Of a DNA stretch of 64,000 nt, positions 6,189 through 40,237 are shown in pieces. Under the pieces are notes generated by a model. The model saw only the letters and a program-made list of their open reading frames with translations. It was not told where the DNA came from and did not search any database. Every line of letters begins with the position of its first letter. Within the stretch, counting starts at the first letter, position 1. The stretch lies in NCBI GenBank assembly GCA_016720835.1, contig JADKJW010000001.1:616230-680229 (forward strand), written 5' to 3'. Both the position numbers and the translations under genes were made by a program. This DNA comes from Ignavibacteria bacterium (lineage in GTDB: Bacteria; Bacteroidota; Ignavibacteria; SZUA-365).

Positions 6189-7241
6189 TTATTTTTTCCG
6201 GAGTTCGGTGCTGATCTCTTTCACCGCGTCCACCATGGCCTTCGCGTGTTCCACGGGCACGTCGGGCAGGATGCCGTGCCCGAGGTTGAAGATGTGCCCG
6301 GGATGCGAGCCGAACTTCGTGAGGATGCTGCGGACCTGGGCGCGGATCGATTCGGGCGACGAGTAGAGCGCGACGGGATCGAGATTGCCCTGCAGGGATG
6401 CGCGGTGCCCCACGTTTTCGCGCGCCTCGCCGAGGTCCACGGTCCAGTCCAGCCCGACCACATCGCAGCCGCAGGCGGCCACTTCCTTGAGCGCGCCGGT
6501 GGCGCCCCGGGCGAACACGATGACGGGCACGTCCGAATTGGCTTTCACTTCGCGGATGATGCGCGTGATGTAGGGCAGCGAGAAGGTGAGGAAGGCGTCC
6601 TTGCTCATGATGCCGGCCCAGGTGTCGAAGATCTGCACGATGTCGGCGCCGTTGCGCGTCTGCTCGACGAGGTACTTGGACACCACGCCGGCGAGCTTGT
6701 CGAGCAGCGTATGGAGCAGGGCCGGTTCGTTGTACATCATCGTCTTCACGGCGGCGAAGTCCTTCGCGCCGCGGCCTTCGACGGCGTAGGCGGCGAGCGT
6801 CCAGGGCGCGCCCGCGAAGCCGATCAGCGGCACGCGACCGTCGAGCACGCGGGAGGTGAGTTTGAGCGCGTCGTACACGTAGCGCAGGCGTTCCACGGCG
6901 CCGTCCGTGACGAGGGCGTCGATATCGGCCTTGCTGCGCAGGGGTTTCGGGAAGCGCGGTCCGCCCTTCCCTTCCTCGACGACGAGTTCCATGCCCATGG
7001 CTTCGGGCACCACGAGGATATCGGAGAAGATGATGGCCGCGTCGACGCCGACGATGTCGACCGGTTGGATGGTGACTTCCGATGCGAGTTCGGGGGTTTT
7101 GCAGAGGGTGAGGAAGTCCGTCTTCTCGCGGACGGCGCGATACTCGGGGAGGTAGCGCCCCGCCTGGCGCATCATCCACACCGGGGTGCGGTCCACCTGT
7201 TGCCGTTTGGCTGCGCGGATGAGGAGGTCGTTTTGAAGCAT
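6189..7241 (-). CDS. hemE: uroporphyrinogen decarboxylase
   Basis: 350 aa. N-terminal RTPVWMMRQAGRYLPEY signature of UroD. Confidence 0.9.
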   Translation of the reverse strand: MLQNDLLIRAAKRQQVDRTPVWMMRQAGRYLPEYRAVREKTDFLTLCKTPELASEVTIQPVDIVGVDAAIIFSDILVVPEAMGMELVVEEGKGGPRFPKPLRSKADIDALVTDGAVERLRYVYDALKLTSRVLDGRVPLIGFAGAPWTLAAYAVEGRGAKDFAAVKTMMYNEPALLHTLLDKLAGVVSKYLVEQTRNGADIVQIFDTWAGIMSKDAFLTFSLPYITRIIREVKANSDVPVIVFARGATGALKEVAACGCDVVGLDWTVDLGEARENVGHRASLQGNLDPVALYSSPESIRAQVRSILTKFGSHPGHIFNLGHGILPDVPVEHAKAMVDAVKEISTELRKK

Positions 7242-7343
7242 GGGGGTCCTTGGTTCTGAGGCCCGCTGCGGCGTGGAGGTGTCAACCGCGGCGGATGCCG
7301 CGTGGCCGTCTCTCCGGAGCCGGGCAGATGATGTGCGGGGTCG

Positions 7344-8141
7344 TTAGCCGATATCCATGTGCATGTCGGGGTCCATTTCGATGCGCTGCGCGGAGCCGAA
7401 GCGCGCGACGATGGCGGCGGCCATGGATTCCGCCGTCTGTTCGTCGGCGATCGCGTCCACGCGGAGGCCGCTCGAAAACACCGCCGACGCGGTGGTCTGT
7501 CCGATGACGGCGATGAGGATGGTCGCCTGTTTGAAATCCGGAATCATGGCGGTGAAATTGCGCACCGCGGAGGGCGAGAAAAAGGCGATGCATTCGATGC
7601 CCCCTTCGATGAGCATCTGGTCGAGCGCCGCGAGGTCGCGCTTCGGAGGAGCGATGGCGCGATACACGGTGACGCGGTTCACCTTGCCGCCGCGCGCCTC
7701 CACCTGTGCCGCGAAGTCCTCGCGCATCAGGTCCGAACCGGGCTGCAGGAAAAAATGGTTGGAGACGTCGCCGAGCGCCGCGGCCAGATGTCCCGCGCTT
7801 GCGGAGACGGGCACGGTGGCGACGTCGAGGCCGAAGGCGCGCGCGGCTTCGGCGGTCCGCTCGCCGACGGCGTGGACGGCGGGCACGTCATCGAGGCCGC
7901 CGAGGCGTTCGCGGCAACGCTCGAGGAAGAAGCGCGCGGCGTTGGCGCTGGTCAGCACGACGCCGGAATAGACGCCGATGGCGTCGATCGCGTCGTCGGC
8001 GGCATCCCAGGACAGGGGCGGCACGATCTCGATCATCGGCATGTGCAGCACGCCGATGTCCGCCGCGTCGAGGATGCGCTCGAAGGCGTCGGACGCGCCC
8101 GGGGGACGCGTGAGCAGCACCGTGTGCGCGTGCGCGCTCAT
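7344..8141 (-). CDS. hemD: uroporphyrinogen-III synthase
   Basis: About 265-aa HemD-like product starting MSAHAHTVLLTRP. Its start ATG overlaps the hemC stop (ATGA). The long upstream ORF extension is non-coding. Confidence 0.75.
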   Translation of the reverse strand: MSAHAHTVLLTRPPGASDAFERILDAADIGVLHMPMIEIVPPLSWDAADDAIDAIGVYSGVVLTSANAARFFLERCRERLGGLDDVPAVHAVGERTAEAARAFGLDVATVPVSASAGHLAAALGDVSNHFFLQPGSDLMREDFAAQVEARGGKVNRVTVYRAIAPPKRDLAALDQMLIEGGIECIAFFSPSAVRNFTAMIPDFKQATILIAVIGQTTASAVFSSGLRVDAIADEQTAESMAAAIVARFGSAQRIEMDPDMHMDIG

Positions 8142-9082
8142 GCCCGCTTCGGCGCCGCGGCGCGGATGTCGTCGAGGATGGCCTTCGCGCCGTTGTCGTA
8201 GAGTTTTTTCGCGATGCGCCGTCCGAGCTGCGCGGCCTTCGCCGGCTCCGCGACCGACCCGCCCGCGTCGAGGCGGATGGTCCCGTCGATGCTGCCCACC
8301 GTCGCGTCGAGGAGCAGCCGTCCGTCCTTCACGCGGGCCCAGGCGCCGATCGGAATCTGGCATCCGCCCTCGAGCGTCCGCAGCAGCGCCCGCTCGGCCG
8401 TGGTGGCGGCGAAGGTGGCGTCGTGATGGAGGACGCGCACGGCGCGCAACGCGGCCTCGTCGCCCTCGCGGATCTCGATGCCCAGCGCCCCCTGGCCGAC
8501 GGCGGGAAGGATGAGTTCCGGAGGAATGATCTGCGCGATGCGGTCGGCCCACCCGAGGCGCTTGACGCCGGCGCAGGCGAGGAGCATGCCGTCCCATTTC
8601 GACGCGTCGAATTTCGCGAAGCGCGTGTTGAGGTTGCCGCGGATGTCGACGACACGCACGTCCGGCCGCAGGTGGAGCAGCTGGCTCGTGCGCCGCAGGC
8701 TGCCGGTGGCGATGAGCGCGCCCTCGGGCAGGTCGGCGATGGAGCGCCACTGCCGGGAGATCAGCACGTCGCGCACGTCCTCGCGCTTCGTCACCGCGCC
8801 GATGCGCAGGCCTTCGGGCGTTTCGGTCGGCAGGTCCTTGAGGCTGTGCACGGCGATGTCGACGCGGCCGTCGAGCAGGGCTTCCTCGATTTCCCTGGTG
8901 AAGAGGCCCTTGTCGCCGATGGCCGAGAGGGCCTGGTTGAGGATCCTGTCGCCGGTGGTCTTGATGACCAGCACCTCCACGCGGAGGGCGGGAAAGCGCT
9001 TTTCGAGGCGGTCCTTGACGTGATGCGCCTGCCAGAGGGCGAGGGCGCTGCCGCGCGTGCCGATGGTGAGGGTGCTGCTCAT
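8138..9082 (-). CDS. hemC: hydroxymethylbilane synthase (porphobilinogen deaminase)
   Basis: 314 aa. Motifs IGTRGSxLALxQ and the cofactor-Cys region GGCQIPIG. Confidence 0.9.
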   Translation of the reverse strand: MSSTLTIGTRGSALALWQAHHVKDRLEKRFPALRVEVLVIKTTGDRILNQALSAIGDKGLFTREIEEALLDGRVDIAVHSLKDLPTETPEGLRIGAVTKREDVRDVLISRQWRSIADLPEGALIATGSLRRTSQLLHLRPDVRVVDIRGNLNTRFAKFDASKWDGMLLACAGVKRLGWADRIAQIIPPELILPAVGQGALGIEIREGDEAALRAVRVLHHDATFAATTAERALLRTLEGGCQIPIGAWARVKDGRLLLDATVGSIDGTIRLDAGGSVAEPAKAAQLGRRIAKKLYDNGAKAILDDIRAAAPKRA

Positions 9083-29055: not shown

Positions 29056-30141
29056 ATGCATGACGAGATCCACCATACCATCTACTGGCACGCGCTCGAC
29101 GACGGCCGCGTGCAGTGCGATCTCTGCCCGCGTCTCTGCAAACTCCGCGAAGGGCAGCACGGCCCGTGCTTCGTCCGCATGAATGAGGGGAACAGCATCG
29201 TGCTCACCACGTACGGCCGTTCCAGCGGATTCTGCGTGGATCCCATCGAGAAGAAGCCGCTGAACCACTTCCTGCCCGGCACCCCCGTGCTCTCCTTCGG
29301 CACGGCCGGCTGCAATCTCTCCTGCCGCTTCTGCCAGAACTGGGACATCAGCCACTCGCGCGAGAACGACCGGTTGACGGAATCCGCGTCGCCCGAGGCC
29401 ATCGCCCTCGCTGCGCGGCGGATGGAATGCGCGAGCGTGGCCTTCACGTACAACGAACCGGTCATCTTCATGGAATACGCGGTGGACGTGGCGCTCGCCT
29501 GCCATGCCTCGGGCATCCGCACGGTGGCCGTCACCGCCGGCGCCATCAATCCGAAACCGCGCGCGGAGTTCTTCCGGCACATCGATGCGGCCAATGTTGA
29601 TCTCAAGGCCTTTTCCGAGGGCTTCTACCGCAGCGTCTGCGGCGCGCAGCTCGGCGCGGTGAAGGACACGCTGCGGTATCTGAAACACGAAACCTCCGTC
29701 TGGTTCGAAATCACAACGCTGCTGATTCCGGGCATGAATGATTCCGAGCAGGAAATCGAAGACATGACGCAGTGGATCGCGAGCGCGCTCGGACCGGACG
29801 TGCCGCTGCATTTCACCGCCTTCCATCCGGATGGGCACATGCGCGACATCGCGCGCACTCCGGCCGCGGTGCTGCGCCGCGCGCGCGACACCGCGCTGCG
29901 CAACGGACTGCGCTACGTCTACACCGGCAACATCCGCGATCTCGATGGAGCGACCACGCGCTGTCACGCCTGCGGCACAACGCTCATCGTGCGCGACGGC
30001 TACGACATCACATCATACGCTATCACCGCGCAGGGAGCCTGCAGGAAATGTGCGATGCCTGTCGCCGGGGTGTTTGCTTCAGCGCCAGGCACGTGGGGAT
30101 CGCGCCGGCAGACGGTTCGGATTGCAGGGGAAGAAAGGTGA
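29056..30141 (+). CDS. AmmeMemoRadiSam system radical SAM enzyme-like protein (PflA-like activase family)
   Basis: CxxxCxxC radical-SAM motif CNLSCRFCQNW. Family-typical N-terminus HTIYWHxLDDGRVQCDLCPRxCKLxEGQxGxCxVR. C-terminal Cys pair. Confidence 0.7.
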   Translation: MHDEIHHTIYWHALDDGRVQCDLCPRLCKLREGQHGPCFVRMNEGNSIVLTTYGRSSGFCVDPIEKKPLNHFLPGTPVLSFGTAGCNLSCRFCQNWDISHSRENDRLTESASPEAIALAARRMECASVAFTYNEPVIFMEYAVDVALACHASGIRTVAVTAGAINPKPRAEFFRHIDAANVDLKAFSEGFYRSVCGAQLGAVKDTLRYLKHETSVWFEITTLLIPGMNDSEQEIEDMTQWIASALGPDVPLHFTAFHPDGHMRDIARTPAAVLRRARDTALRNGLRYVYTGNIRDLDGATTRCHACGTTLIVRDGYDITSYAITAQGACRKCAMPVAGVFASAPGTWGSRRQTVRIAGEER

Positions 30142-30395
30142 AGGGAGAAGGAGAAGGTGAAGGTGCTCGCCCGCCGAAGCTCGCCATAGGCGAGCGCAGG
30201 TGGGAAGGGTGAATCGTGAGTGGTGAATCGTGATTAGCAAGATTATGACCGGGTGGGGACAAGCGTCTCGCTTGTCCGATTCACAGGAGTGGCGCCTGCC
30301 ATCATTCGTGGAAGATCTACCCGTTATTTCGGCCCGTCATGCTGAGCGAAGCGAAGCATCTGTCCATCCAGAGTCCAAGAATTCCCGAGGATGAA

Positions 30396-30492
30396 CGACT
30401 TCTGAGTTCTGCATTCTGAGTTCTGGATTCTGAGTTCTGGATTCTGAGTTCTGGATTCTGAGTTCTGGATTCTGAGTTCTGGATTCTGGATT
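30396..30492. repeat. tandem heptamer repeat (tctgagt/tctggat alternating, about 14 units)
   Basis: Directly visible as ttctgagttctggattctgagttctggat… between the radical SAM gene and the next ORF. Confidence 0.85.
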
Positions 30493-30509
30493 CTGAATTC
30501 CTGTTCTCC

Positions 30510-30989
30510 TCAATCCGCGAACTGCCTCAGTGTTTTTCGAAAGCGCTCGAAGACGGGTTTGAACTTGCGATACTCGTTGTTGTCGCGGCATTTCATCCCG
30601 GTGATGGTCTTCGTGCCGTGCTCTTCGTTCTCGACGTAGACGCGCATGTAGGAACGGTCTTTCGCGAGAATGGTCACGAGGCGGCCGACCGCGCCGTCGA
30701 GACTTTTCTGTTCCTTCACCGTGACGGTTTCGCGCGCGGTATCGGGACGGATGTCGCGCGCTTCGCCGCTCCACTGCGGAGAAAAGACGTAGAATTCCAC
30801 GTTCCCGTCGCGCGAGCGGAAAAACGCACTCTCCGCGCCCTTGCCCGTCTTGCTCGCCTGCGAGGCGCGAGCCTTGAATTCGGGCGGGTAGTCGATGGCG
30901 AACCACGCGCCGGTGAAGGTCTTCCAGGCCTTCTGCCCGGAAGCGGGGATGACGAGGAGGAGGGCGGCAATGATCAGCAAGCGGCGCAT
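30510..30989 (-). CDS. hypothetical secreted protein
   Basis: Signal peptide MRRLLIIAALLLVIPASG. No family recognised. Confidence 0.4.
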   Translation of the reverse strand: MRRLLIIAALLLVIPASGQKAWKTFTGAWFAIDYPPEFKARASQASKTGKGAESAFFRSRDGNVEFYVFSPQWSGEARDIRPDTARETVTVKEQKSLDGAVGRLVTILAKDRSYMRVYVENEEHGTKTITGMKCRDNNEYRKFKPVFERFRKTLRQFAD

Positions 30990-31307
30990 GGAGGGCACTC
31001 CGATTGTTTCACGAATGTAACGAGGCGGCCTTGTCCGCCGCAATGCGGCCGCGGAGCGCCTTCGCCGATATTTTTGTCTTTACCCCCGCGAATGGTAAGT
31101 TTGTTGGACCGGATGAAAGGAGTGCAGGTCTTCTCCATGCGCCGGTGAAGCAACGTGGGCATCTTCCTTCACCCTTCACCCTTCCCACCTGCGCTCGTCG
31201 GTGGCGAGCTTCGGCGGGCAAGCACCTTCACCCTTCACTCTTCTCCCTTCCCTTCCAACTCTCAGCGAATCAGACTCTTTTCCCAGATACCATCGGAGGT
31301 TTTTTCC

Positions 31308-32693
31308 ATGTCACTCAGTTGGCTCATCCTTCTCATCGCCGTCGTGGCGATCGCGGCGCTCGTCTTCTGGATGATGAAACAGTACCGCAAAGTGGGGTCG
31401 AATGAAGTGCTCGTCGTGTCGGGTCGCAAAAGCGTGATCATGACGCCGGACGGCAGCAAGCAGGAGATCGGGTACCGCTTCCGCATCGGCGGCAGCTCCT
31501 TCGTCAATCCCTTCACGGAGCAGGCCAGCGCCATGCCCATCGAAGTGGTGAGCCTCACCATCCGCACCCCGGAGGTGCTGTCGAAGGACGGCATCCCCAT
31601 CGTCGCGGAATCGTCGGCGCAGGTGAAGATCGACGCGAACGAATACTCGATCTTCCTCGCGACGCAGAACTTCCTCACGGGAGGATCCGACGCCGTGCGC
31701 GAAGTGGCGCAGACCGTGCTCGAAGGCAAGGTGCGCGAGACCGTCGGCAGCATGACGGTGACCGAACTCTACCAGAACCGCGCCGAGTTCGGCGAGCGCG
31801 TGTACAACGCCGTGGTGCGCGACCTCGCGAGCATGGGCCTCGTGATGCTCTCCTTCGCGCTCAAGGACATCAGCGACACGCAGGGCTACCTCGACGCCCT
31901 CTCGAAGCCGATGGTGGCCGCCGCCAAGCGCGATGCCATCATCAAGCAGGCCGAGTACGATCGCGACGCCGCCATCTACGCCTCGCAGGCCAAGAAGGAA
32001 GCCGACATCGCGAAACTCACCGCCGACGCCGAAGTGGCGGGCCGCAACTGGCGGAACGAGGAACTGAAGGCCAATTCGCAGATCAACGTCAGCAAGGTGC
32101 GCGCGCAGGCCGACGTGCAGTACGAACTCGAGCGCTTCCGCCTCGCCCAGGAAGTGAAGCAGGAAGAGTACAAGGTCAAGATCATCGAGACGCAGGAACA
32201 GGCCAAGGTGCAGGTCGAAGAGATCAAGCGCAAGGAAAAGGAACTCGAAGCCACCATCATCAAGCCGGCCGAGGCGCGCAGGCTGCAGATCCAGTCCGAA
32301 GCCGAAGCCGACAGCTTCCGCGTCGTCAAGGAAGCCGAGGCGCGCTCCACCGCCCGCGCGAAGGAAAACGCCAGCGACTCCGACCGCATCCGCCTGCTCG
32401 GCGCCTCCGAAGCCGACGCCATGAAGGAAAAGGCCAAGGCCTACGAGCAGTACAACCAGGCCGCGATGTACCAGATGATCGTCGACATCCTCCCCGAACT
32501 CACGAAGAACATCGCCGAACCGCTCTCGCGCATCGACAAGATCACCCTCATCGGCGGCTCGGACGGCAAGCTCGGCACCAGCCAGATCACCGGCCAGATC
32601 GCCGACGTGCTCGCCCAGGTGCCCGAAGTCGTGAAGTCCCTCACCGGCGTCGACATCGCGAAATACCTGCGCGACAAGATGGGCAGCGAGTGA
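31308..32693 (+). CDS. flotillin / SPFH (band 7) domain protein
   Basis: N-terminal TM helix, SPFH domain, and a long Ala/Glu/Lys-rich coiled-coil flotillin region. Start at MSLSWLIL. Confidence 0.8.
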   Translation: MSLSWLILLIAVVAIAALVFWMMKQYRKVGSNEVLVVSGRKSVIMTPDGSKQEIGYRFRIGGSSFVNPFTEQASAMPIEVVSLTIRTPEVLSKDGIPIVAESSAQVKIDANEYSIFLATQNFLTGGSDAVREVAQTVLEGKVRETVGSMTVTELYQNRAEFGERVYNAVVRDLASMGLVMLSFALKDISDTQGYLDALSKPMVAAAKRDAIIKQAEYDRDAAIYASQAKKEADIAKLTADAEVAGRNWRNEELKANSQINVSKVRAQADVQYELERFRLAQEVKQEEYKVKIIETQEQAKVQVEEIKRKEKELEATIIKPAEARRLQIQSEAEADSFRVVKEAEARSTARAKENASDSDRIRLLGASEADAMKEKAKAYEQYNQAAMYQMIVDILPELTKNIAEPLSRIDKITLIGGSDGKLGTSQITGQIADVLAQVPEVVKSLTGVDIAKYLRDKMGSE

Positions 32694-32878
32694 GGGGATC
32701 GTGAATCGTGAATGGTGAATCGTGATCTACAACCGACATCATCACCACTCACGACGACACATCACCTCGTTCGATTCGCAATCACCCTGACCGTTCGCGT
32801 TTTTCGACTCACGACTCACGACTCACGATTCACCATTCCCGGACCGCCTTTCGCGGCGACAACAGGAGACCATCGAAC

Positions 32879-35215
32879 GTGACAGCAGATAGAATCAACC
32901 TCATCGGCACCTCCCCGACGCTGAAGGTGGACGCGAAGGCCAAGGCGATGCGCGAGGACGGCATCGACGTGGTCAACCTCAGCGTCGGCGAACCGGACTT
33001 CCCGACGCCGAAGCACATCAGCGATGCCGGACGCAAGGCCATCGACGACAACTTCACGAAGTACACCGCCTCCGAAGGCATCCTCCCGCTGCGCCAGGCC
33101 ATCGCCCGGCAGCTCGTGGAGGAGCATCAGCTCACGTACGACGCGTCCGAGATCATCGTCTCCAACGGCGCCAAGCACTCGCTCTACAACGTGATGATGG
33201 CGCTCGTGAACAGCGGCGACGAAGTGATCGTCCCTGCGCCGTACTGGGTCTCGTACCCCGAGATGGTGAAGCTCGCCGACGGCCGCCCGATCTTCGTGCA
33301 GACGAAGGAGGAGAACGGCTTCCGCCTTACGCCCGAACAGCTCCGCGAAGTGATCGGCGCGCGCACGCGGGCCGTGATCCTCAACAATCCGTCGAATCCC
33401 ACCGGCGGCGGCTACACGCGCGAGGAACTCGAAGCCCTCGCCGAAGTGATCGTCGAGGAGGACATCTACTGCATCGCCGACGAGATCTACGGCAAGCTGA
33501 TGTACGACTCGCGCAAGTTCACGCGCTTCGCCGCACTCGGCGCCGAGGTGAAGAAACGCACCATCACCATCGACGGCGTGTCGAAGGCCTACGCCATGAC
33601 CGGCTGGCGCATCGGCTGGGCGGCCGGACCGAAGGACGTCATCGCCGCGATGTCGAAGGTGCAGAGCCACGCGACGTCCAACCCCAGCTCCATCTCGCAG
33701 CGCGCCGCGCTCGAGGCGTACAAGGGGCCGCAGTACGAAGTCGCGAAGATGGCCTCGGAGTTCGAGAAGCGCCGCAACTTCGTCGTGTACAAACTGCAGG
33801 CCATGCCGGGCGTGTCCTGCCCCATGCCGCGCGGCGCCTTCTACGCCTTCCCGAACGTGTCGTCCTACTACGAGAAGGAATTCGACGGCGTGCCGATACG
33901 CAACAGCTACGGCATGGCCTACTACCTGCTGAAGCACGCGCACGTGGCCATCATCGCGGGCGAGGCCTTCGGGTCCGACGACTTCATCCGCATCAGCTAC
34001 GCCACCGGCATGCAGAATCTCGAGAAGGGCATGCAGCGCATCGCGGACGCCCTCGCCAAGCTGAAACCCGCGCCAAAACGCAAGCTCATCCGCCTCGCCA
34101 ATACCGAAACCGTGGTCAAACACGCCGCGCCCGTCGACGCCGAGGTCACGCCCGAACGGCGCGACGCCCTGGTGGCCGAGGCCGAGGCGCATCTGCACTA
34201 CAGCGCCTACCACGAGTGGAACGCCAACATCAACGGCATGATCGTGCAGCTCCGCACGAACATCGGACACCTGTACGACTTCTGGATGGAGAACTGGTAC
34301 CCCGCGCAGCTCGAGTCCGATATCGAACCGCACGGCATCATCTACGCGGTGGACGGCGTCACCGGACGCGAGCCGCACGCGTTCTACAACAGCGACACCA
34401 AGACGGGCGTGCTCTTCAACAGCGACCATTACGGCTCGCTGCGCTCCCTCGCCCTCGGCCTCACCACCGACGTGGCCGACCGCCTCTTCGACGTGCACGG
34501 CGTGCGCTGCATGTCGCTCGACATCAACGGGTCGGGCGCGCTCTTCATCGGCCCCTCGGGCACGAAGAAGACCGACCTGTTCTGGCGCCTCCTCGAGGAG
34601 GAACCCGCCGCGTCGCTGCACTCCACCGACTACGTGTTCCTCCGCCACGGCGGCGGCATCGCGGCGGCCGACAATCCCGAGCGCAAGCTCTACATCCCCA
34701 CCAACGCCGTCAGCGTGCACGAACCGCTCGCGCGCCTCTTCGACAAGTGCAAGTGCGAGAACGTGACGATGAAGGTGGAGGAGTGCCGCAACGAGACGCA
34801 CAAGATCACGGACTCCTGTCCCCTCAACAGCGGCGCGCCGTACAGCTACGACTGCGCGAAGAAGAGCCACGCGATGCTCGATCCCTACTGGATCGGCGGC
34901 ATGGCGCGGCACGTGAAGCGCATCGACGTGCGCCACGTCTTCATCATGCGCAACGACCCCGTCACCACCGCCGCGCAGCGCCTCGACGCCGAGGACGCCA
35001 TGCACGTGATCGAGAACGGCTATCCCGCCGGACTGCAGGGCGGCAAGCAGGAGGCCTTCTACAACGGGCACCTGCTCCTGAAATCTTCCGAACGCACAGA
35101 GCGCCAGAAACGCTCCTTCGCCAAACTCTTCGCGGCCGCCGAAGTCTGGCAGCTCAATGCCGGCACGGCGACGGTGACGGACATGGTGAAGAAGGTGCTG
35201 GAAGTGGTTCGGTGA
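32879..35215 (+). CDS. fusion protein: class-I aspartate/aromatic aminotransferase (N-terminal about 400 aa) plus a divergent PEP-carboxykinase-like P-loop domain (C-terminal about 380 aa)
   Basis: N-terminus has LSVGEPDFPTP, NPSNPTGG and the PLP-Lys motif SKAYAMTGWRIGW. The C-terminal region aligns by eye to the ATP-PEPCK core (…HGVRCMSLDINGSGALFIGPSGTKKT… vs [26 protein letters not shown]; …ENVTMK vs ENVTVR). Confidence 0.65.
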   Translation: MTADRINLIGTSPTLKVDAKAKAMREDGIDVVNLSVGEPDFPTPKHISDAGRKAIDDNFTKYTASEGILPLRQAIARQLVEEHQLTYDASEIIVSNGAKHSLYNVMMALVNSGDEVIVPAPYWVSYPEMVKLADGRPIFVQTKEENGFRLTPEQLREVIGARTRAVILNNPSNPTGGGYTREELEALAEVIVEEDIYCIADEIYGKLMYDSRKFTRFAALGAEVKKRTITIDGVSKAYAMTGWRIGWAAGPKDVIAAMSKVQSHATSNPSSISQRAALEAYKGPQYEVAKMASEFEKRRNFVVYKLQAMPGVSCPMPRGAFYAFPNVSSYYEKEFDGVPIRNSYGMAYYLLKHAHVAIIAGEAFGSDDFIRISYATGMQNLEKGMQRIADALAKLKPAPKRKLIRLANTETVVKHAAPVDAEVTPERRDALVAEAEAHLHYSAYHEWNANINGMIVQLRTNIGHLYDFWMENWYPAQLESDIEPHGIIYAVDGVTGREPHAFYNSDTKTGVLFNSDHYGSLRSLALGLTTDVADRLFDVHGVRCMSLDINGSGALFIGPSGTKKTDLFWRLLEEEPAASLHSTDYVFLRHGGGIAAADNPERKLYIPTNAVSVHEPLARLFDKCKCENVTMKVEECRNETHKITDSCPLNSGAPYSYDCAKKSHAMLDPYWIGGMARHVKRIDVRHVFIMRNDPVTTAAQRLDAEDAMHVIENGYPAGLQGGKQEAFYNGHLLLKSSERTERQKRSFAKLFAAAEVWQLNAGTATVTDMVKKVLEVVR

Positions 35216-35300
35216 TTCGTGAATCGTGAATGGTGAATCGTGAATCGTGGAAGGTGAATCGTGAATCGTGGAAGGTGGAAGGTGACAGGTGGAAGGTGAA
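35216..35300. repeat. simple repeats (gtgaatcgtgaat / ggtggaaggtga units)
   Basis: Directly visible low-complexity tandem units immediately after the fusion gene. Confidence 0.8.
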
Positions 35301-35323
35301 ATACGGATGCCGCAGGCGCCGTC

Positions 35324-35602
35324 ATGAAGGAAACCATCAGTAAAACAGACTCTTCAATCCGAAATTCGAAATTCATTGATGCTCGCCGAAATGCGCCCTC
35401 AGTTTGGGGGGGATTTGTAGGCTGGGCGAGATCGCAAGGTGCGATACGCATGAAAATGATCGCCCTTCGGAATCTCGCCATCCACGAGTACTTTGGGGTC
35501 GACCCGGAAATTCTCTGGACAATCATTACTCGCGATCTTCCTCAGACGAAGGAGAAAATCAAGCAGCTGATCGACACTGACCTGTCGCCGTTGGACAGCT
35601 GA
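35324..35602 (+). pseudogene. HepT-like (DUF86) toxin remnant, N-terminally truncated, no adjacent MntA partner
   Basis: 92-aa ORF containing the DUF86 Rx4HxY motif (RNLAIHEYFGVD…W…DLP). It lacks about 50 N-terminal residues of typical HepT. Simple repeats lie immediately upstream. Confidence 0.5.
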
Positions 35603-35713
35603 GTCATACACAGCGTCGCGAGGTGAGAATCCGCGACCAAATTCAGCACCTCTTGCTTCTTTCAATCCGAAATCGACAATCCGAAATTCGAAATCAATAA
35701 TCCGTAACTCCCC

Positions 35714-37564
35714 ATGGCTAAAGACAACTTCGACGTCCCCTACTACGACACATTCACCGCCGAGCTGCAGGACGCGCTCAAGGGTCCGAACATCAAGGAA
35801 GTGGACCTGAAGTGGCTGCGGCCGCGCGCGGAGAGTTTCGCGCAGCAGACGAAGCACGGCTCGCACGTGTGGCATTCCATCCAGAGCTCGCGCCTGGCCG
35901 CGAAGACGGTGTACCTCGGCACGGAGAAGATCCGCCTGCCCATCACCTCGCCCGATCAGGACAAGCTGATCAAGGGCGCGCCGGACGAGCTCAAGAAGGT
36001 GCTGAACTGGATGAAGACGCTGCCCTTCGTGAAGCTCACGCGGCAGATGGGCGACAACGCCGAGTTCAACCCCACCTGCACCATCTACACCTGCGTGAAG
36101 GACCCGAAGAACGTGCGCCTGCCTTACATGTGGGGCAACCTGCTCTTCGATCCGGCGAAGCGTCCGGGACCGAACATCACGATGATCCACATCCCCGAGG
36201 AGCACACCACCCGGCAGCAGATCCTCACCATGCCGGAGTACAACCTCAACATCTGCCTCGGCTCCGACTACCTCGGCGAGGAGAAGAAGGGCTTCCTGCG
36301 CCAGGCCATGTGGCTTGCGGACGAAAAGGGCATGCTCGGACTGCACGCGGGCACCAAGGTGGTGATCGCGCGCGACGCCCGCACCAACGAACTCAAGAAG
36401 TACGGCGTCATCCTCTTCGGCATGACCGCCACGGGCAAGTCCACCTGGAGCTGCCACCAGCTCATGATGGACAACAAGCGCGGCGAGATGACCTACGTGT
36501 CGCAGGACGACATCTGCTTCCTGAAGGACGACGGCTCGGCCTACGGCAGCGAGGCGAACTACTACGTGAAGACCGACGTGGTGAAGGACCAGCAGGAGGC
36601 CATGTGGCACGCGCTGGTGGACAAGAGCGCGCTGCTCGAGAACGTGATGGTGACGGCCGACGGCACCATCGAGTGGCTGGACGAGAGCATGTGCGGCAAC
36701 GGCCGCGCCGTGGTGCGCAAGGACAAGCTCGCCGTGGAGCGCGACGGCAAGCTGCTGCCGATCATGGCCAAGACCATCAACCTGCCCTCGCTCGACGAGA
36801 TGGACGGGCTGATCTTCGCCTTCATCACGCGCCGCAACACCATCATGCCCTTCTCGCAGCAGCTCACGCCCGAGCAGGGCGCGCTCGCGTACCTGTTCGG
36901 CGAGTCCACGCTCAGCTTCGCCGCCAATCCGCTCAAGGCGGGCGAGTCCGTGCGCATCGTCGGCACCGACGACTTCATCGTGGGCAGCCGCGCGCGCAAG
37001 GTGAACCGCTTCTACGACATCGCGATGAAGCTCAACGCGAAGTACCCGGGCAAGGTGCGCTTCATGATCTACAACACGGGCGGCATGGGCGAGATCATCG
37101 AGACGCACGAAGAGAACGGCAAGACCGTGAAGAAGATGGTGCGCAAGACCGACCGCGTGCCGCTGGACCTGATGGCCGCAATCCAGCGCGGCGACCTGCG
37201 CGGCACCAACAAGTACGAGAAGGGCGTGCTCGGCACCATGTCCATCCAGGAGGCCGACGGCCGCACCATGCCCGAGTGGGACGTGCATCACCTCTACTCG
37301 CAGGAGCAGATCGACGCCTACGTGAAGGAAATCATCGCCGGCCGCCGCGCCTTCCTCGAGGAAGTGTCGCGCGAGGGCCTGCGCCCCGAGATCATCGCCG
37401 CCGCAGAGCGCGGCTTCCGTTCCATGGGCGAGCGCCGCTTCACCCCCGCCACCGTGCCCGTGGGCATGTCCTTCGCGCCCTCCGCTCCCGATCCGCGCAT
37501 CATCGTGAAAAACGACGAGCCGGTGGCACGGCCGAAGAAGCCGGGGGTGTGGCGCTGGCGCTGA
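35714..37564 (+). CDS. pckA: phosphoenolpyruvate carboxykinase (ATP)-like
   Basis: EEKKGF…GLHAGT…ILFGMTATGKST…QDDICFLKDDGS…NYY aligns to the E. coli PckA GEMKKG…MHCSAN…[11 protein letters not shown]…GDDEHGWDDDG…CYAK block. Kinase-2-like FMIYNTGGMGE matches LVNTGWNG. At 616 aa it is longer than canonical PckA (540 aa). Confidence 0.7.
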   Translation: MAKDNFDVPYYDTFTAELQDALKGPNIKEVDLKWLRPRAESFAQQTKHGSHVWHSIQSSRLAAKTVYLGTEKIRLPITSPDQDKLIKGAPDELKKVLNWMKTLPFVKLTRQMGDNAEFNPTCTIYTCVKDPKNVRLPYMWGNLLFDPAKRPGPNITMIHIPEEHTTRQQILTMPEYNLNICLGSDYLGEEKKGFLRQAMWLADEKGMLGLHAGTKVVIARDARTNELKKYGVILFGMTATGKSTWSCHQLMMDNKRGEMTYVSQDDICFLKDDGSAYGSEANYYVKTDVVKDQQEAMWHALVDKSALLENVMVTADGTIEWLDESMCGNGRAVVRKDKLAVERDGKLLPIMAKTINLPSLDEMDGLIFAFITRRNTIMPFSQQLTPEQGALAYLFGESTLSFAANPLKAGESVRIVGTDDFIVGSRARKVNRFYDIAMKLNAKYPGKVRFMIYNTGGMGEIIETHEENGKTVKKMVRKTDRVPLDLMAAIQRGDLRGTNKYEKGVLGTMSIQEADGRTMPEWDVHHLYSQEQIDAYVKEIIAGRRAFLEEVSREGLRPEIIAAAERGFRSMGERRFTPATVPVGMSFAPSAPDPRIIVKNDEPVARPKKPGVWRWR

Positions 37565-37643
37565 ACGTGGATTCGTTGGTATACTGAAGGCGCGAGAATC
37601 ACCCTTCGCGCCTTCTCTATTTCCACCATCGAGTACTGATGCC

Positions 37644-38180
37644 ATGACCACCTGCATCGCTCTCCTCCGCGGCATCAATGTCGGAGGAAAACATTCCCTG
37701 CCGATGAAGACGCTCGCCGCCATACTCGAAGACCTCGGCGCGAAGAGCGTCAGGACATACATTCAGAGCGGCAACGCGGTGTTTCACTTCGCGGAGAAGA
37801 ACACGTCGAAGCTTGCCAAGCTCCTGGCGGAAGAAATCCACAAGCGGCAGGGCTTCGAGCCCGCGGTGCTCATCCTGACGCGCGAGGCGCTCGTGAAGGC
37901 GATGGCCGCGAATCCCTTCCCCGAAGCGGAGGCCGATGCGACCGGCCTGCACCTGGGTTTTCTCGCCTCCGTGCCGAAGTCCCCGAACCTGGAGAAGCTC
38001 GAGAGTCTGCGCGGCGCGAGCGAGCGCTTTCAACTTCTCGGCAGCGTGTTCTATCTCCACGCACCCGACGGCGTGGGCAGATCCAAGCTCGCCGCGGCGT
38101 CCGAGAAGCTCCTCGGCGTGCCGATGACGGACCGGAACTGGAGAACGGTGTACGCGCTGCGGGATATGGCAGTGGAATGA
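37644..38180 (+). CDS. DUF1697 family protein
   Basis: N-terminal ALLRGINVGGK signature of DUF1697. Confidence 0.6.
   Translation: MTTCIALLRGINVGGKHSLPMKTLAAILEDLGAKSVRTYIQSGNAVFHFAEKNTSKLAKLLAEEIHKRQGFEPAVLILTREALVKAMAANPFPEAEADATGLHLGFLASVPKSPNLEKLESLRGASERFQLLGSVFYLHAPDGVGRSKLAAASEKLLGVPMTDRNWRTVYALRDMAVE
38064..38170. repeat. direct repeat copy A (3' end of the DUF1697 gene)
   Basis: About 90% identical to 38908-39013. The two copies flank the DUF4160/DUF2442 cassette. Confidence 0.8.
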
Positions 38181-38381
38181 TGGCGCATCCTGATCGATTC
38201 CGCAGCCCGCGACGATGCATCGATGGGCAGGGTCGTCGCGTCTCAGGTGTTCCACGTTCCGATCGGAAAATCCATGAATGGAGATCAGTGATGTTCTTCC
38301 TTGCATTCCGCTCGTGGCGGTGATAGTTTCGATGCAGAGCGCTGACCAGAAGACCACCATTGTAGAACCCGGGAACTGCGC

Positions 38382-38648
38382 ATGCCCACCATCTCCATGT
38401 TTTTTGGCATCATTATCCGGATGTACTATTCGCCAGGCGAACATCCCCCTGCGCATTTCCATGCCTACTACGGTGAATTCAAGGCGACCGTTGATATCGC
38501 CACGTGTGAGATCCTGCAGGGAGACCTTCCGGGCAGGCAAACCAAGCTCGTGCTGGCTTGGGCGGAGTTGCACAAGGAAGAATTGATGGCAGACTGGTCG
38601 CTGATGGGTCGAGGCGAGGAACCGTTTAAAATCCAGCCGTTGCAGTAG
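38382..38648 (+). CDS. DUF4160 domain protein
   Basis: N-terminal ISMFFGIIIRMYxxxxEHxPxHFHAxYGE signature. Confidence 0.6.
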   Translation: MPTISMFFGIIIRMYYSPGEHPPAHFHAYYGEFKATVDIATCEILQGDLPGRQTKLVLAWAELHKEELMADWSLMGRGEEPFKIQPLQ

Positions 38649-38659
38649 GAGACAGTGAG

Positions 38660-38905
38660 ATGCCCCCTGCAGTGACGAGTGTCGTGGCAAGAGACGATTT
38701 CACACTTCATGTGGTTTTCGAAAACGGCGAGAGTGGTGTCCTCGACATGAAGCCGTATCTGGATTTCGGCGTGTTCCGCAGCATCGGTACCCTTGCGGCA
38801 TTCAAATCCGTGCGTGTGGCCTTCGATACCGTCGAATGGGGTAATGGTATCGATCTGGATCCGGAATTTGTGCACACCGCCTGTGTACTGCATCCCAAAC
38901 ACTGA
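38660..38905 (+). CDS. DUF2442 domain protein
   Basis: 81 aa, typical DUF2442 size/pattern (…LxVxFxNGExxxxDxxPYL…). Consistently paired with DUF4160. Confidence 0.55.
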   Translation: MPPAVTSVVARDDFTLHVVFENGESGVLDMKPYLDFGVFRSIGTLAAFKSVRVAFDTVEWGNGIDLDPEFVHTACVLHPKH

Positions 38906-39081: not shown

Positions 39082-39546
39082 ATGAAGACCAACGCCATCC
39101 GCATCCTTGAATCGCTGCGCATCGCGCACGAAGCCATCGAGTACGAAGTCTCGGAAGACGAGATCGACGCGATGTCCGTCGCGCGCAAGATCGGCGCGGA
39201 TCCCGACTGCGTGTTCAAGACCCTCGTGGCGCGCGGGGACAGGACGGGCGTTTGCGTGTTCGTGATTCCGGGTCCCGCCGAGCTGCACCTGAAGAAGGCC
39301 GCGGCGGCGAGCGGCAACAAGGCCGTGGAGATGATACACCTGAAGGAGCTGCTCCCGCTCACCGGCTACATCCGCGGCGGCTGCTCTCCTGTCGGCATGA
39401 AGAAGCAGTACCCCACCTTCATCGACGAGACCGCGCAGCTCTTCGACGCGATACACGTCTCGGCCGGCGTGCGCGGCATGCAGGTGCGGCTGTCGCCGGG
39501 GGAACTTCTCGGGGCGGTCGGTGGGGTATATGCGGAATTGATTTGA
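39082..39546 (+). CDS. ybaK: Cys-tRNA(Pro)/Cys-tRNA(Cys) deacylase YbaK
   Basis: 154 aa. YbaK/EbsC pattern (…VFKTLVxxGDxxGxxVxVIPG…LxLKKAA…SG…). Confidence 0.7.
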   Translation: MKTNAIRILESLRIAHEAIEYEVSEDEIDAMSVARKIGADPDCVFKTLVARGDRTGVCVFVIPGPAELHLKKAAAASGNKAVEMIHLKELLPLTGYIRGGCSPVGMKKQYPTFIDETAQLFDAIHVSAGVRGMQVRLSPGELLGAVGGVYAELI

Positions 39547-39805
39547 AAGCGGAGACTGGGGACTCGGGACTGGGGACTGGGGAGAAAAAGGAGTGATGGA
39601 GTGGTGGAGTGGATTCTTCACCCGCTCATGGAATTTTCCACGGCGCTCGCAGGCTGAACGGCCAGATCCATCCCTTCGGCTTCGCTCAGGGCAAGCTTCT
39701 GCGCATCAGGATGACCGGCCCTTTTCCATTGTGCTCTGCCTTTCACCTCTCACCCTTCACCCTGCACCATTCACCCTTCTTCCTTCATAATTCATCCTTC
39801 AACAT

Positions 39806-40237
39806 TCACCCTTCCACAGAGAGCAGCTCGATCTCGAAGGTCAGCGCCTTGCCGGCGAGGGGGTGATTCGCGTCGAGGGTGACGTGTGTCGGGGAGAGTT
39901 CGGTGACGCGGACGGGGACGCTGCTGCCGTCGTCCTGGTGTATGGTGAGTTCCATGCCGATCTCGGGCACGATCTCGGGCGGAATGTCGCTGCGTTTCGC
40001 GCGGAGCACGTACTGCTCGCTGTACTCGCCGTAGGCCTGTGCTGCGGGGATGGTGACGGTGACCGTCCCGCCGACCTCGAGGCCCATGACGGCCGCATCA
40101 AAGCCTGGGATGACCTCGCCCTTGCCGAGCGTGAACGCGAACGGCGCGCCGCCGCGCGAGGAATCGAAGACGGAGCCGTCATCGAGCGAGCCGGTGTAAT
40201 GCACGCTGACGCGATGTCCTTTGGATGCTGCTGCCAC
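39806..40237 (-). CDS. FKBP-type peptidyl-prolyl cis-trans isomerase
   Basis: VSVHYTGSLDDGSVFDSS…GxxEVIPGFDAAVxGLEVG pattern of the FKBP fold. Confidence 0.7.
   Translation of the reverse strand: MAAASKGHRVSVHYTGSLDDGSVFDSSRGGAPFAFTLGKGEVIPGFDAAVMGLEVGGTVTVTIPAAQAYGEYSEQYVLRAKRSDIPPEIVPEIGMELTIHQDDGSSVPVRVTELSPTHVTLDANHPLAGKALTFEIELLSVEG

Follow-up and report, generated by a model that had tools for sequence, protein, structure and literature searches.

The 64,000-nucleotide (nt) stretch analysed here (hereafter the window; contig JADKJW010000001.1 of assembly GCA_016720835.1, Ignavibacteria bacterium) encodes a 778-amino-acid (aa) protein in which an aspartate aminotransferase (AspAT) runs, in a single open reading frame (ORF), into a C-terminal module with the predicted fold of phosphoenolpyruvate carboxykinase (PEPCK). 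The gene lies between those of a flotillin and a divergent ATP-type PEPCK. The latter belongs to a distinct clade of ~610-aa PEPCK_ATP proteins, here termed PEPCK-610, that occurs in the same phyla as the fusion. The main features of the locus are listed below; module numbering, where used, is the fusion-protein residue minus 400 (e.g., C226 = C626).

31155..32693, + strand: flotillin (SPFH/Band_7 plus Flot C-terminal region; PF01145 1.9e-25, PF15975 3.6e-05), first gene of the cassette
32879..35215, + strand: fusion ORF (AspAT, linker, PEPCK-fold module; GTG start, 778 aa, 0 internal stops)
32879..34066, + strand: class-Ib AspAT domain, residues 1-396 (PF00155 1.8e-73, residues 30-388)
33584-33586, + strand: pyridoxal phosphate (PLP) lysine K236 (GVSKAYAMTGW), which aligns with the AK of 1J32
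34079..35212, + strand: PEPCK-fold module, residues 401-778, equivalent to PEPCK-610 residues ~63-77 to ~483, with the catalytic set partly substituted
34550..34573, + strand: Walker-A/kinase-1a P-loop G558-P-S-G-T-K-K564-T565, which aligns with PEPCK-610 G236..K242-S243 (E. coli G248..K254-T255)
34754..34855, + strand: Cys-rich insert (C626, C636, H641, C647, S656, C659) ahead of the R333 position, a putative site for Zn or another metal
35714..37564, + strand: divergent ATP-type PEPCK of 616 aa, PEPCK-610 family (PF01293 3.1e-22)

An aspartate aminotransferase fused to a second domain

The original prediction described an uninterrupted ORF that begins with a complete class-I AspAT and its PLP lysine, and this is what we find. 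The aspartate transaminase model NF004769 covers residues 2-396 at 436.7 bits and NF041091, also an aspartate transaminase model, scores 407 bits, both under the equivalog cut-offs of the models (617 and 550, respectively). Among solved structures, the closest relative is Phormidium AspAT 1J32 (E 6e-110, residues 3-390), followed by rhizobial AspATs, Arabidopsis prephenate aminotransferase, and Thermus AspAT. K236 sits in GVSKAYAMTGWR, and the motifs NPSNPTG, DEIY, SKAYAMTGWR, IRISY, and NGAKHS are kept across the 77 AspAT::module fusions that we aligned to measure residue conservation. From Thermus and Phormidium AspATs, the Asn of NPxNPTG, the Asp and Tyr of DEIY, the Lys of SK, the Arg of GWR, a C-terminal Arg, and the class-Ib Lys, which serves the distal carboxylate, are known to contact PLP or substrate carboxylates. 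We predict that the N-terminal half works as a class-Ib AspAT and catalyses Asp + 2-oxoglutarate ⇄ oxaloacetate + Glu.

The fusion itself is genuine rather than a product of sequencing or assembly. Of 82 related loci checked for reading frame, 79 keep AspAT and module in a single frame that encodes 773-791 aa. Among these independent assemblies is the finished genome of a cultured bacterium, Caldithrix abyssi DSM 13497, whose orthologue is 782 aa long (WP_006930795.1 = H1XNK2 = Calab_3642). An artefact that joined two neighbouring genes could draw on the three remaining loci (L001, L002, and L046), where the halves lie in different frames; in all three, however, part of the AspAT-coding sequence is outside the module's open frame, and we give this explanation next to no probability. 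In one of them (L002; ENA ERZ25039462, an 804-kb contig), an AspAT of 405 aa and a module of 354 aa are called as separate genes at 6724-9065. Either the gene has truly split and PEPCK has been lost, or a frameshift in long reads could account for the separate calls.

A scan of GTDB species representatives identified the module in 481 genomes. Fusion loci come from Ignavibacteria and other Bacteroidota, Calditrichota, Aminicenantes and other Acidobacteriota, Holophagales, and Caldisericaceae, with taxa taken from record titles, some of which appear to be mislabelled among the metagenome-assembled genomes (MAGs); Candidatus Fischerbacteria also carries the fusion. The expectation that the architecture would be non-standard is thus only partly borne out. 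It is widespread, but Calab_3642 is annotated solely as "aminotransferase class I and II" (K00812), and literature searches for an AspAT-PEPCK fusion, a PEPCK-like protein with an aminotransferase or HprK, flotillin with PEPCK and AspAT, the Calab locus tags, and ScmC returned no description of the system.

The C-terminal module has a predicted PEPCK fold

Both signatures that first pointed to PEPCK are present, namely FIGPSGTKKT at fusion residues 556-565 and ENVTMK at 627-632. Sequence-profile searches recover little beyond them. Residues 401-778 yielded nothing significant against Pfam and NCBIfam; the module did not match PF01293 at E ≤ 1, and NF006821 matched at E 0.022 through the P-loop alone. 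A hidden Markov model (HMM) of the module family, searched against Protein Data Bank (PDB) sequences, returned AspAT tails and marginal HprK matches and no PEPCK chain.

Structure and profile comparisons are more informative. An AlphaFold2 model of the module, built from an alignment of 51 homologs, has a predicted local distance difference test score (pLDDT) of 93.5 and a predicted template modelling score (pTM) of 0.91, and its best 35 Foldseek matches are all ATP-PEPCKs (E 2e-17, probability 1.00, TM-score ≤0.75 by query length). In profile-profile comparison, the window-based module alignment matches the PEPCK-610 family at 92-93% probability (E 3-5e-7), and a set of archaeal standalone modules matches it at 95.2% (E 2.7e-8) over 323 columns, pairing module residues 21-373 with PEPCK 77-483. 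The alignment is confined to PEPCK-610 residues 77-483, and the module is therefore best described as a PEPCK paralog trimmed at both ends. On this modelling and alignment evidence, it has a PEPCK fold that goes beyond a generic P-loop or HprK core. The proposed alignment of the C-terminal half to PEPCK is accordingly upheld by structure and profile-profile searches, while the direct tests against PF01293 and HprK models gave no sequence match in the window's module.

The HprK family deserves separate consideration. The relationship between PEPCK and HprK is well established, and enzymes of central carbon metabolism are regulated by HprK/P and PDRP, both of them P-loop proteins with two activities. 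The module might by analogy be a protein kinase/phosphorylase that switches PEPCK or the fused AspAT by Ser/Thr phosphorylation; it keeps its P-loop, it is tightly linked to a metabolic enzyme gene, and 12 of 52 family members have sub-threshold matches to Hpr_kinase_C (PF07475; best 2.7e-6). These matches all fall under the gathering score of 33.3 bits, individually scored relatives reaching at most ~26 bits, and the window protein has none. The structural match to PEPCK is also far stronger, with 341 residues against ~135 for HprK/P, whose C-terminal domain extends over about 170 aa, and the Walker-A Lys is lost in relatives fused to PEPCK. We regard a kinase or phosphorylase of this type as improbable. 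PF27840 (ScmC), an HprK-like protein of the SynChlorMet cassette, was likewise set aside as an explanation of the module, and it matches module relatives only faintly.

The suggestion that the module arose by duplication of pckA fares less well. A recent tandem duplication of the neighbouring gene was rejected, as BLASTP detects no similarity between the module and the 616-aa PEPCK (E 2.5), and the two share 16-20% identity in hhalign. The module belongs instead to an older family of ~375-aa mini-PEPCK proteins that appear free-standing in archaea.

Loss and retention of catalytic residues

To compare the catalytic set with that of E. coli PckA, residues were transferred by HMMER alignment to PEPCK-610 and then by profile-profile alignment of the archaeal standalone modules to PEPCK-610. 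The residues found at each E. coli position are listed for 70 archaeal standalone modules and 76 AspAT-fused bacterial proteins, with the number of sequences after each residue.

Y207: standalone Y 70; fused N35 / H22 / Y12
K212: standalone K 70; fused R 75
K213: standalone S 70; fused S 72
H232: standalone H 70; fused R 76
K254: standalone K 70; fused K 76
T255: standalone S 70; fused T68 / S7
D268: standalone D 70; fused N54, Asp in none
D269: standalone D 70; fused D 75
K288: standalone R 69; fused P 61
R333: standalone R 70; fused H35 / Y15 / A13 / F8

Several catalytic positions had been suspected of substitution, and the changes H232→R, K212→R, K213→S, D268→N/T, K288→P, and R333→H/Y/A/F confirm this. 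Only the K254, T255, and D269 equivalents are retained from the PEPCK catalytic set, and the N-terminal segment that would bear R65 is absent from the whole module family. The loss of metal, substrate, and transition-state residues is specific to the fused clades, whereas archaeal standalone relatives and the neighbouring PEPCK-610 keep them. Two features of an earlier, window-based global hhalign were discarded in favour of the alignment through archaeal relatives: the pairing of module H140 with PEPCK-610 H211, since the His232 equivalent falls at module position 143, and the C-terminal end, where N360 belongs to the NTG motif.

These losses bear on whether the module could itself act as a complete second PEPCK, in which case a single protein would turn aspartate into phosphoenolpyruvate (PEP). 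Its PEPCK fold and its retention of the ENV motif, the P-loop, and the D269 equivalent would fit such an enzyme. However, the module lacks the R65 segment and has other residues at the equivalents of H232, D268, K288, R333, K213, and Y207; mutants of the E. coli enzyme at several such positions have been crystallised as probes of mechanism, as judged from structure titles; and a complete PEPCK gene stands next door in almost all loci, which would make a second one redundant. Because residues for metal, substrate, and phosphoryl transfer are lost, we consider such a catalytic role very improbable, and the pseudo-enzyme domain raised in the original prediction fits the residue pattern best.

The module is not decaying. 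Averaged over pairs of sequences, identity reaches 0.61 in the module and 0.68 in the AspAT half, and the module contains 61 invariant columns; this strong purifying selection, comparable in strength to that on the AspAT half, indicates a functional domain. The most conserved stretch of the whole protein is residues 443-560, with an identity of 0.74 and 37 of 118 columns invariant. Among the 77 fusions, G558, G561, and K564 are kept in every sequence, T565 is T69/S7, the Asp269 equivalent is present in 76, and the His232 equivalent (module position 143) is Arg in all. Module residues R143, R189, D198, R202, and K203 are likewise invariant.

The Cys-rich insert is missing in most archaeal standalone relatives. 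Its core cysteines are nearly fixed across the fusions (C226 75/77, C236 76/77, C247 76/77), while position 241 is C58/H18, 256 is C59/S18, and 259 is A55/C19. The window's clade has a C→H change at 241 and its Cys moved from 256 to 259. Such apparently compensating swaps (C241↔H; C256/A259↔S256/C259) suggest a structural metal site.

The downstream PEPCK

The neighbouring gene was predicted to encode a bona fide, unusually long pckA homolog. Its PEPCK_ATP membership stands, but the label overstates the case for so divergent a protein. PF01293 matches residues 162-397 only (79.3 bits against a cut-off of 26.5), NF006821 reaches 268.6 bits over residues 16-553 (cut-off 369), TIGR00224 scores 35.5 bits against 590, and all NCBIfam cut-offs are thus missed; matches to solved PEPCKs are at ~30 bits. 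The protein is 100% identical to MBL0174150.1, annotated "PEPCK (ATP)" in an Ignavibacteria MAG; an exact-sequence search with the fusion protein, begun with either start residue, retrieved no entry. HMMER aligns Y186, K191, K192, H211, K242, S243, D265, D266, K286, and R331 with E. coli Y207, K212, K213, H232, K254, T255, D268, D269, K288, and R333, respectively, and all except S243 are invariant in 23 family members; the R65 equivalent (candidate R60) lies outside the alignment. Judged by these residues, PEPCK-610 is most likely an active PEPCK.

PEPCK-610 proteins end in a basic and aromatic tail of the form ..RPxxPGxWRWR-COOH (window 37510-37564), in which R606, P607, and R614 are invariant and W613 and R616 are conserved at ≥90%. 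Canonical PckA lacks this tail, which could be a docking or membrane-binding peptide.

Archaeal and distant relatives

A search of 1.84 billion cluster representatives returned 177 clusters related to the module, including free-standing proteins of 350-410 aa and forms of 450-570 aa. A further search supplied the 70 archaeal standalone modules, which come from Bathyarchaeia, Methanosarcinales, and others. In two archaeal MAGs, a standalone module with a nearly complete PEPCK catalytic set lies close to an AspAT orthologue: in L094 (183-2461) the two genes are divergently adjacent and the AspAT is 44% identical to the window's AspAT half, and in L091 (3223-7164) they are 1.6 kb apart and the AspAT is 37% identical.

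Other relatives are fused to PEPCK instead. The 899-aa protein P0251 joins a module directly to a 610-type PEPCK that is 38% identical to that of the window (E 5e-132). Its ORF occurs on three contigs (L085-L087) with archaeal, Asgard-like neighbours, and its relatives include a protein from a Jordarchaeaceae MAG. In P0251 itself, Walker A is destroyed (GSSENDIAT) and the Cys insert is absent. Across the five PEPCK-fused archaeal modules, the derived Arg is present at the K212 and H232 positions and the P-loop is degraded, with Lys in 2 of 5. The module is therefore linked genomically both to AspAT, through the bacterial fusion and the divergent adjacency in L094, and to PEPCK-610, through bacterial adjacency and archaeal fusion; we count these as three independent links.

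A conserved cassette and its surroundings

Gene order was compared in 84 loci (L001-L084). AspAT::module adjoins PEPCK-610 in almost all of them, across phyla, and a flotillin homolog with ~50-84% identity lies directly 5' of the fusion in nearly all loci with enough contig. The order flotillin, fusion, 610-aa PEPCK is found in nearly every locus with sufficient flanking DNA, whereas genes beyond these three are not conserved between phyla. The juxtaposition of AspAT-module and PEPCK genes noted in the original prediction is conserved across phyla. Spacing is usually tight, with a median of 29 nt from fusion stop to PEPCK start in other genomes (range -5 to 251) and a median of 57 nt between the point where the flotillin match ends and that where the AspAT match begins. 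In every phylum examined, this membrane-scaffold gene stands directly ahead of AspAT::module in a cassette for central carbon metabolism, while the remaining neighbours vary.

The window is an outlier in this respect. The PEPCK gene had been described as directly adjoining the fusion, but a spacer of 499 nt separates them. The features of the spacer and of the cassette's 3' end are as follows.

35212..35300, + strand: heptamer tandem repeats GTGAATC and GTGGAAG, which begin at the fusion stop codon
35324..35602, + strand: C-terminal remnant of a HepT-like RNase toxin, 92-aa ORF (PF01934 1.2e-11, profile positions 82-119 of 120)
37586..37615, + strand: terminator-like hairpin that closes the cassette (11-bp stem, 7 GC pairs, T-rich tail, 22 nt past the PEPCK stop)

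The spacer is long because the HepT remnant has come to lie in it. The remnant does not belong to the cassette's system, and we see no MntA antitoxin beside it. The idea that the spacer holds a riboswitch or leader was rejected, the spacer being a lineage-specific insertion with the HepT remnant, and an Rfam scan of 30000-38500 gave a sub-threshold mir-769 match on a heptamer repeat that we take as chance. A promoter-like site lies just 5' of the PEPCK gene, and no comparable terminator-like site is present on the + strand between the three cassette genes.

Heptamer arrays are a wider feature of this DNA. The window contains 24 period-7 tandem arrays between 829 and 63206, in addition to arrays of period 14, 21, and 28; examples are at 30400-30500, 32698-32725, 32805-32833, 35212-35300, and 39742-39814. 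Each array has its own heptamer (TTCTGAA x14, GTGAATC x8, TTCACCC x10, and others), and around the locus they occupy intergenic spacers. They resemble the STRR repeats of cyanobacteria and are unexpected in an Ignavibacteria MAG. Other genes near the cassette encode a DUF1697 protein (37644-38180), adjoining DUF4160 (7.7e-24) and DUF2442 (4.6e-12) proteins in a toxin-antitoxin-like layout (38382-38905, + strand), and a YbaK-type tRNA-editing domain (39082-39546).

A proposed role for the module

We propose that the module is a nucleotide- or phosphate-binding pseudo-PEPCK that tethers or regulates an AspAT-PEPCK assembly for Asp ⇄ oxaloacetate ⇄ PEP flux, a reading that we favour tentatively and at a little less than even confidence. 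The fused module descends from an old family of trimmed, ~375-aa PEPCK paralogs. Its lineage has kept the phosphate-binding P-loop (Walker-A Lys and Thr) and the Asp269 equivalent and lost the residues for Mn2+ binding, oxaloacetate/PEP binding, and stabilisation of phosphoryl transfer. From the observed fold, fusion, synteny, and pattern of residue loss and retention, we infer docking, channelling, and regulation: the module may hold the AspAT dimer against the PEPCK encoded next door, whose catalytic set is intact, so that labile oxaloacetate could pass between transamination and PEP formation or consumption, and this Asp ⇄ oxaloacetate ⇄ PEP transfer might be gated by adenylate status.

The principal alternative is that the module has been neofunctionalised. 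It would then be a P-loop phosphotransferase, or an ATP/PPi/Pi phosphorylase, whose acceptor is an AspAT-related metabolite other than the oxaloacetate enolate, with a new substrate site formed by the His232→Arg change and the invariant polar cluster EWNANING..QLRTN..H..DFW.ENWYP. The complete conservation of G558, G561, and K564, the near-complete conservation of the Asp269 equivalent, and the invariant R143, R189, D198, R202, and K203 all fit an enzyme, and the conservation of the module's N-terminal part resembles that of an active site more than that of an ordinary interface. In a distant relative, P0322, an intein directly after Walker A points in the same direction. Against this, five ancestral residues for phosphoryl transfer or substrate binding were lost together in the fused clade, the adenine-loop region past N360 is not conserved, and gene context offers no candidate substrate. 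The sister, PEPCK-fused clade has moreover kept the N-terminal motifs despite the loss of its Walker-A Lys, and the function of these motifs therefore needs no ATP chemistry. We consider a new enzymatic activity unlikely, though a serious competitor.

Several observations weigh against the tethering or regulatory pseudo-PEPCK that we favour. The full-length monomer model (AlphaFold2; pLDDT 87.1, pTM 0.53) has no fixed architecture: residues 401-404 of the linker have pLDDT <50, and the packing of AspAT against the module is not set. The model thus lends no support to a rigid two-domain machine, and it speaks neither for nor against channelling. L002, alone among the long contigs, encodes AspAT and module with a SIS-domain gene downstream in place of PEPCK. 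An enzyme that is still catalytic, with a new substrate, would equally account for the invariant Walker-A Lys, the Asp269 equivalent, the ERK motif, and the ~60 invariant residues, most of them polar. The P0322 intein (754-aa protein; PF14890 1.5e-16), apparently right after Walker A (GTGKS), suggests that function depends critically on the P-loop across the wider family. In addition, residues of the module were mapped by profile-profile alignments and motif matches rather than by superposition of coordinates.

More speculatively, the family as a whole may be an unrecognised class of mini-PEPCKs. Archaeal members would form a minimal oxaloacetate/PEP-converting class that works with AspAT, and the bacterial form (FCB group, Acidobacteriota) would be a dead, prozyme-like subunit that, fused to AspAT, assembles with PEPCK-610, and perhaps with flotillin at the membrane, in a nucleotide-controlled aspartate-to-PEP metabolon. 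We offer this extended scheme as a rather unlikely one in its entirety.

The PEP-pyruvate-oxaloacetate node sets the split between gluconeogenesis, anaplerosis, and amino-acid catabolism, and its enzymes are considered well catalogued. Here, a fixed cassette recurs in several phyla that are abundant in the environment yet little studied (Ignavibacteria and related Bacteroidota, Calditrichota, Aminicenantes and other Acidobacteriota, Fischerbacteria). In it, an AspAT that makes oxaloacetate is covalently joined to a degenerate PEPCK paralog, and its gene is linked with those of a divergent PEPCK and a flotillin. Because the ~780-aa protein is annotated just as an aminotransferase, the module is overlooked in metabolic reconstructions. 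If the module is an adaptor or regulator, the cassette would represent a naturally occurring metabolon in which an enzyme and a pseudo-enzyme together handle a labile intermediate; a catalytic module would instead mean that a new activity has evolved on the PEPCK scaffold. The system is phylogenetically broad and well supported, and the mechanism is a proposal. Because Caldithrix abyssi DSM 13497 carries the cassette (Calab_3641, Calab_3642, and an upstream flotillin gene), it can be tested at the bench in a cultured organism.

Comparison with known systems

Both halves of the fusion come from known superfamilies. What we did not find described is the mini-PEPCK family (for which the copy of Pfam searched holds no model), its fusion to AspAT, the clade-specific catalytic loss, and the flotillin-fusion-PEPCK cassette.

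Class-Ib aspartate and prephenate aminotransferases (1J32, Thermus 1BJW, Arabidopsis PAT 5WMH, Rhizobium 6F77) align end to end with residues 1-396 (E 6e-110 to 1e-88) and share the PLP-Lys, NPxNPTG, DEIY, GWR, the carboxylate Arg, and the class-Ib Lys (NGAKHS). Unlike the fusion protein, no described member carries a C-terminal PEPCK-fold domain.

ATP-PEPCK (PckA, PF01293; E. coli 1AQ2, T. cruzi 1II2) has in common with the module the kinase-1a P-loop, the Asp269 equivalent, and the E..Y..T, ENV, and NTG motifs, and the 616-aa protein encoded downstream is a genuine, though divergent, PckA family member whose catalytic set is complete. Relative to the PEPCK-610 sequence, the module lacks ~75 N-terminal residues, including the R65 segment, and ~130 C-terminal residues. 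It further differs from ATP-PEPCK in the absence of a PF01293 match, in six substitutions (H232→R, K212→R, K213→S, D268→N, K288→P, R333→H), in the Cys-rich insert ahead of the R333 position, and in the aminotransferase fused to it. The C-terminal domain of HprK/P (PF07475) and ScmC-like HprK homologs (PF27840) align with the module over ~135 residues, with all matches under the gathering score, and the module has PEPCK N-domain elements that HprK lacks.

Further analogues are pairs of an enzyme and its dead paralog, such as trypanosomatid AdoMetDC and its prozyme, and non-catalytic PEPCK-fold subunits such as NDUEG2 of Euglena complex I. Compared with these, the heteromer is only proposed here, and the preceding enzyme of the pathway carries the dead paralog as a fused domain.

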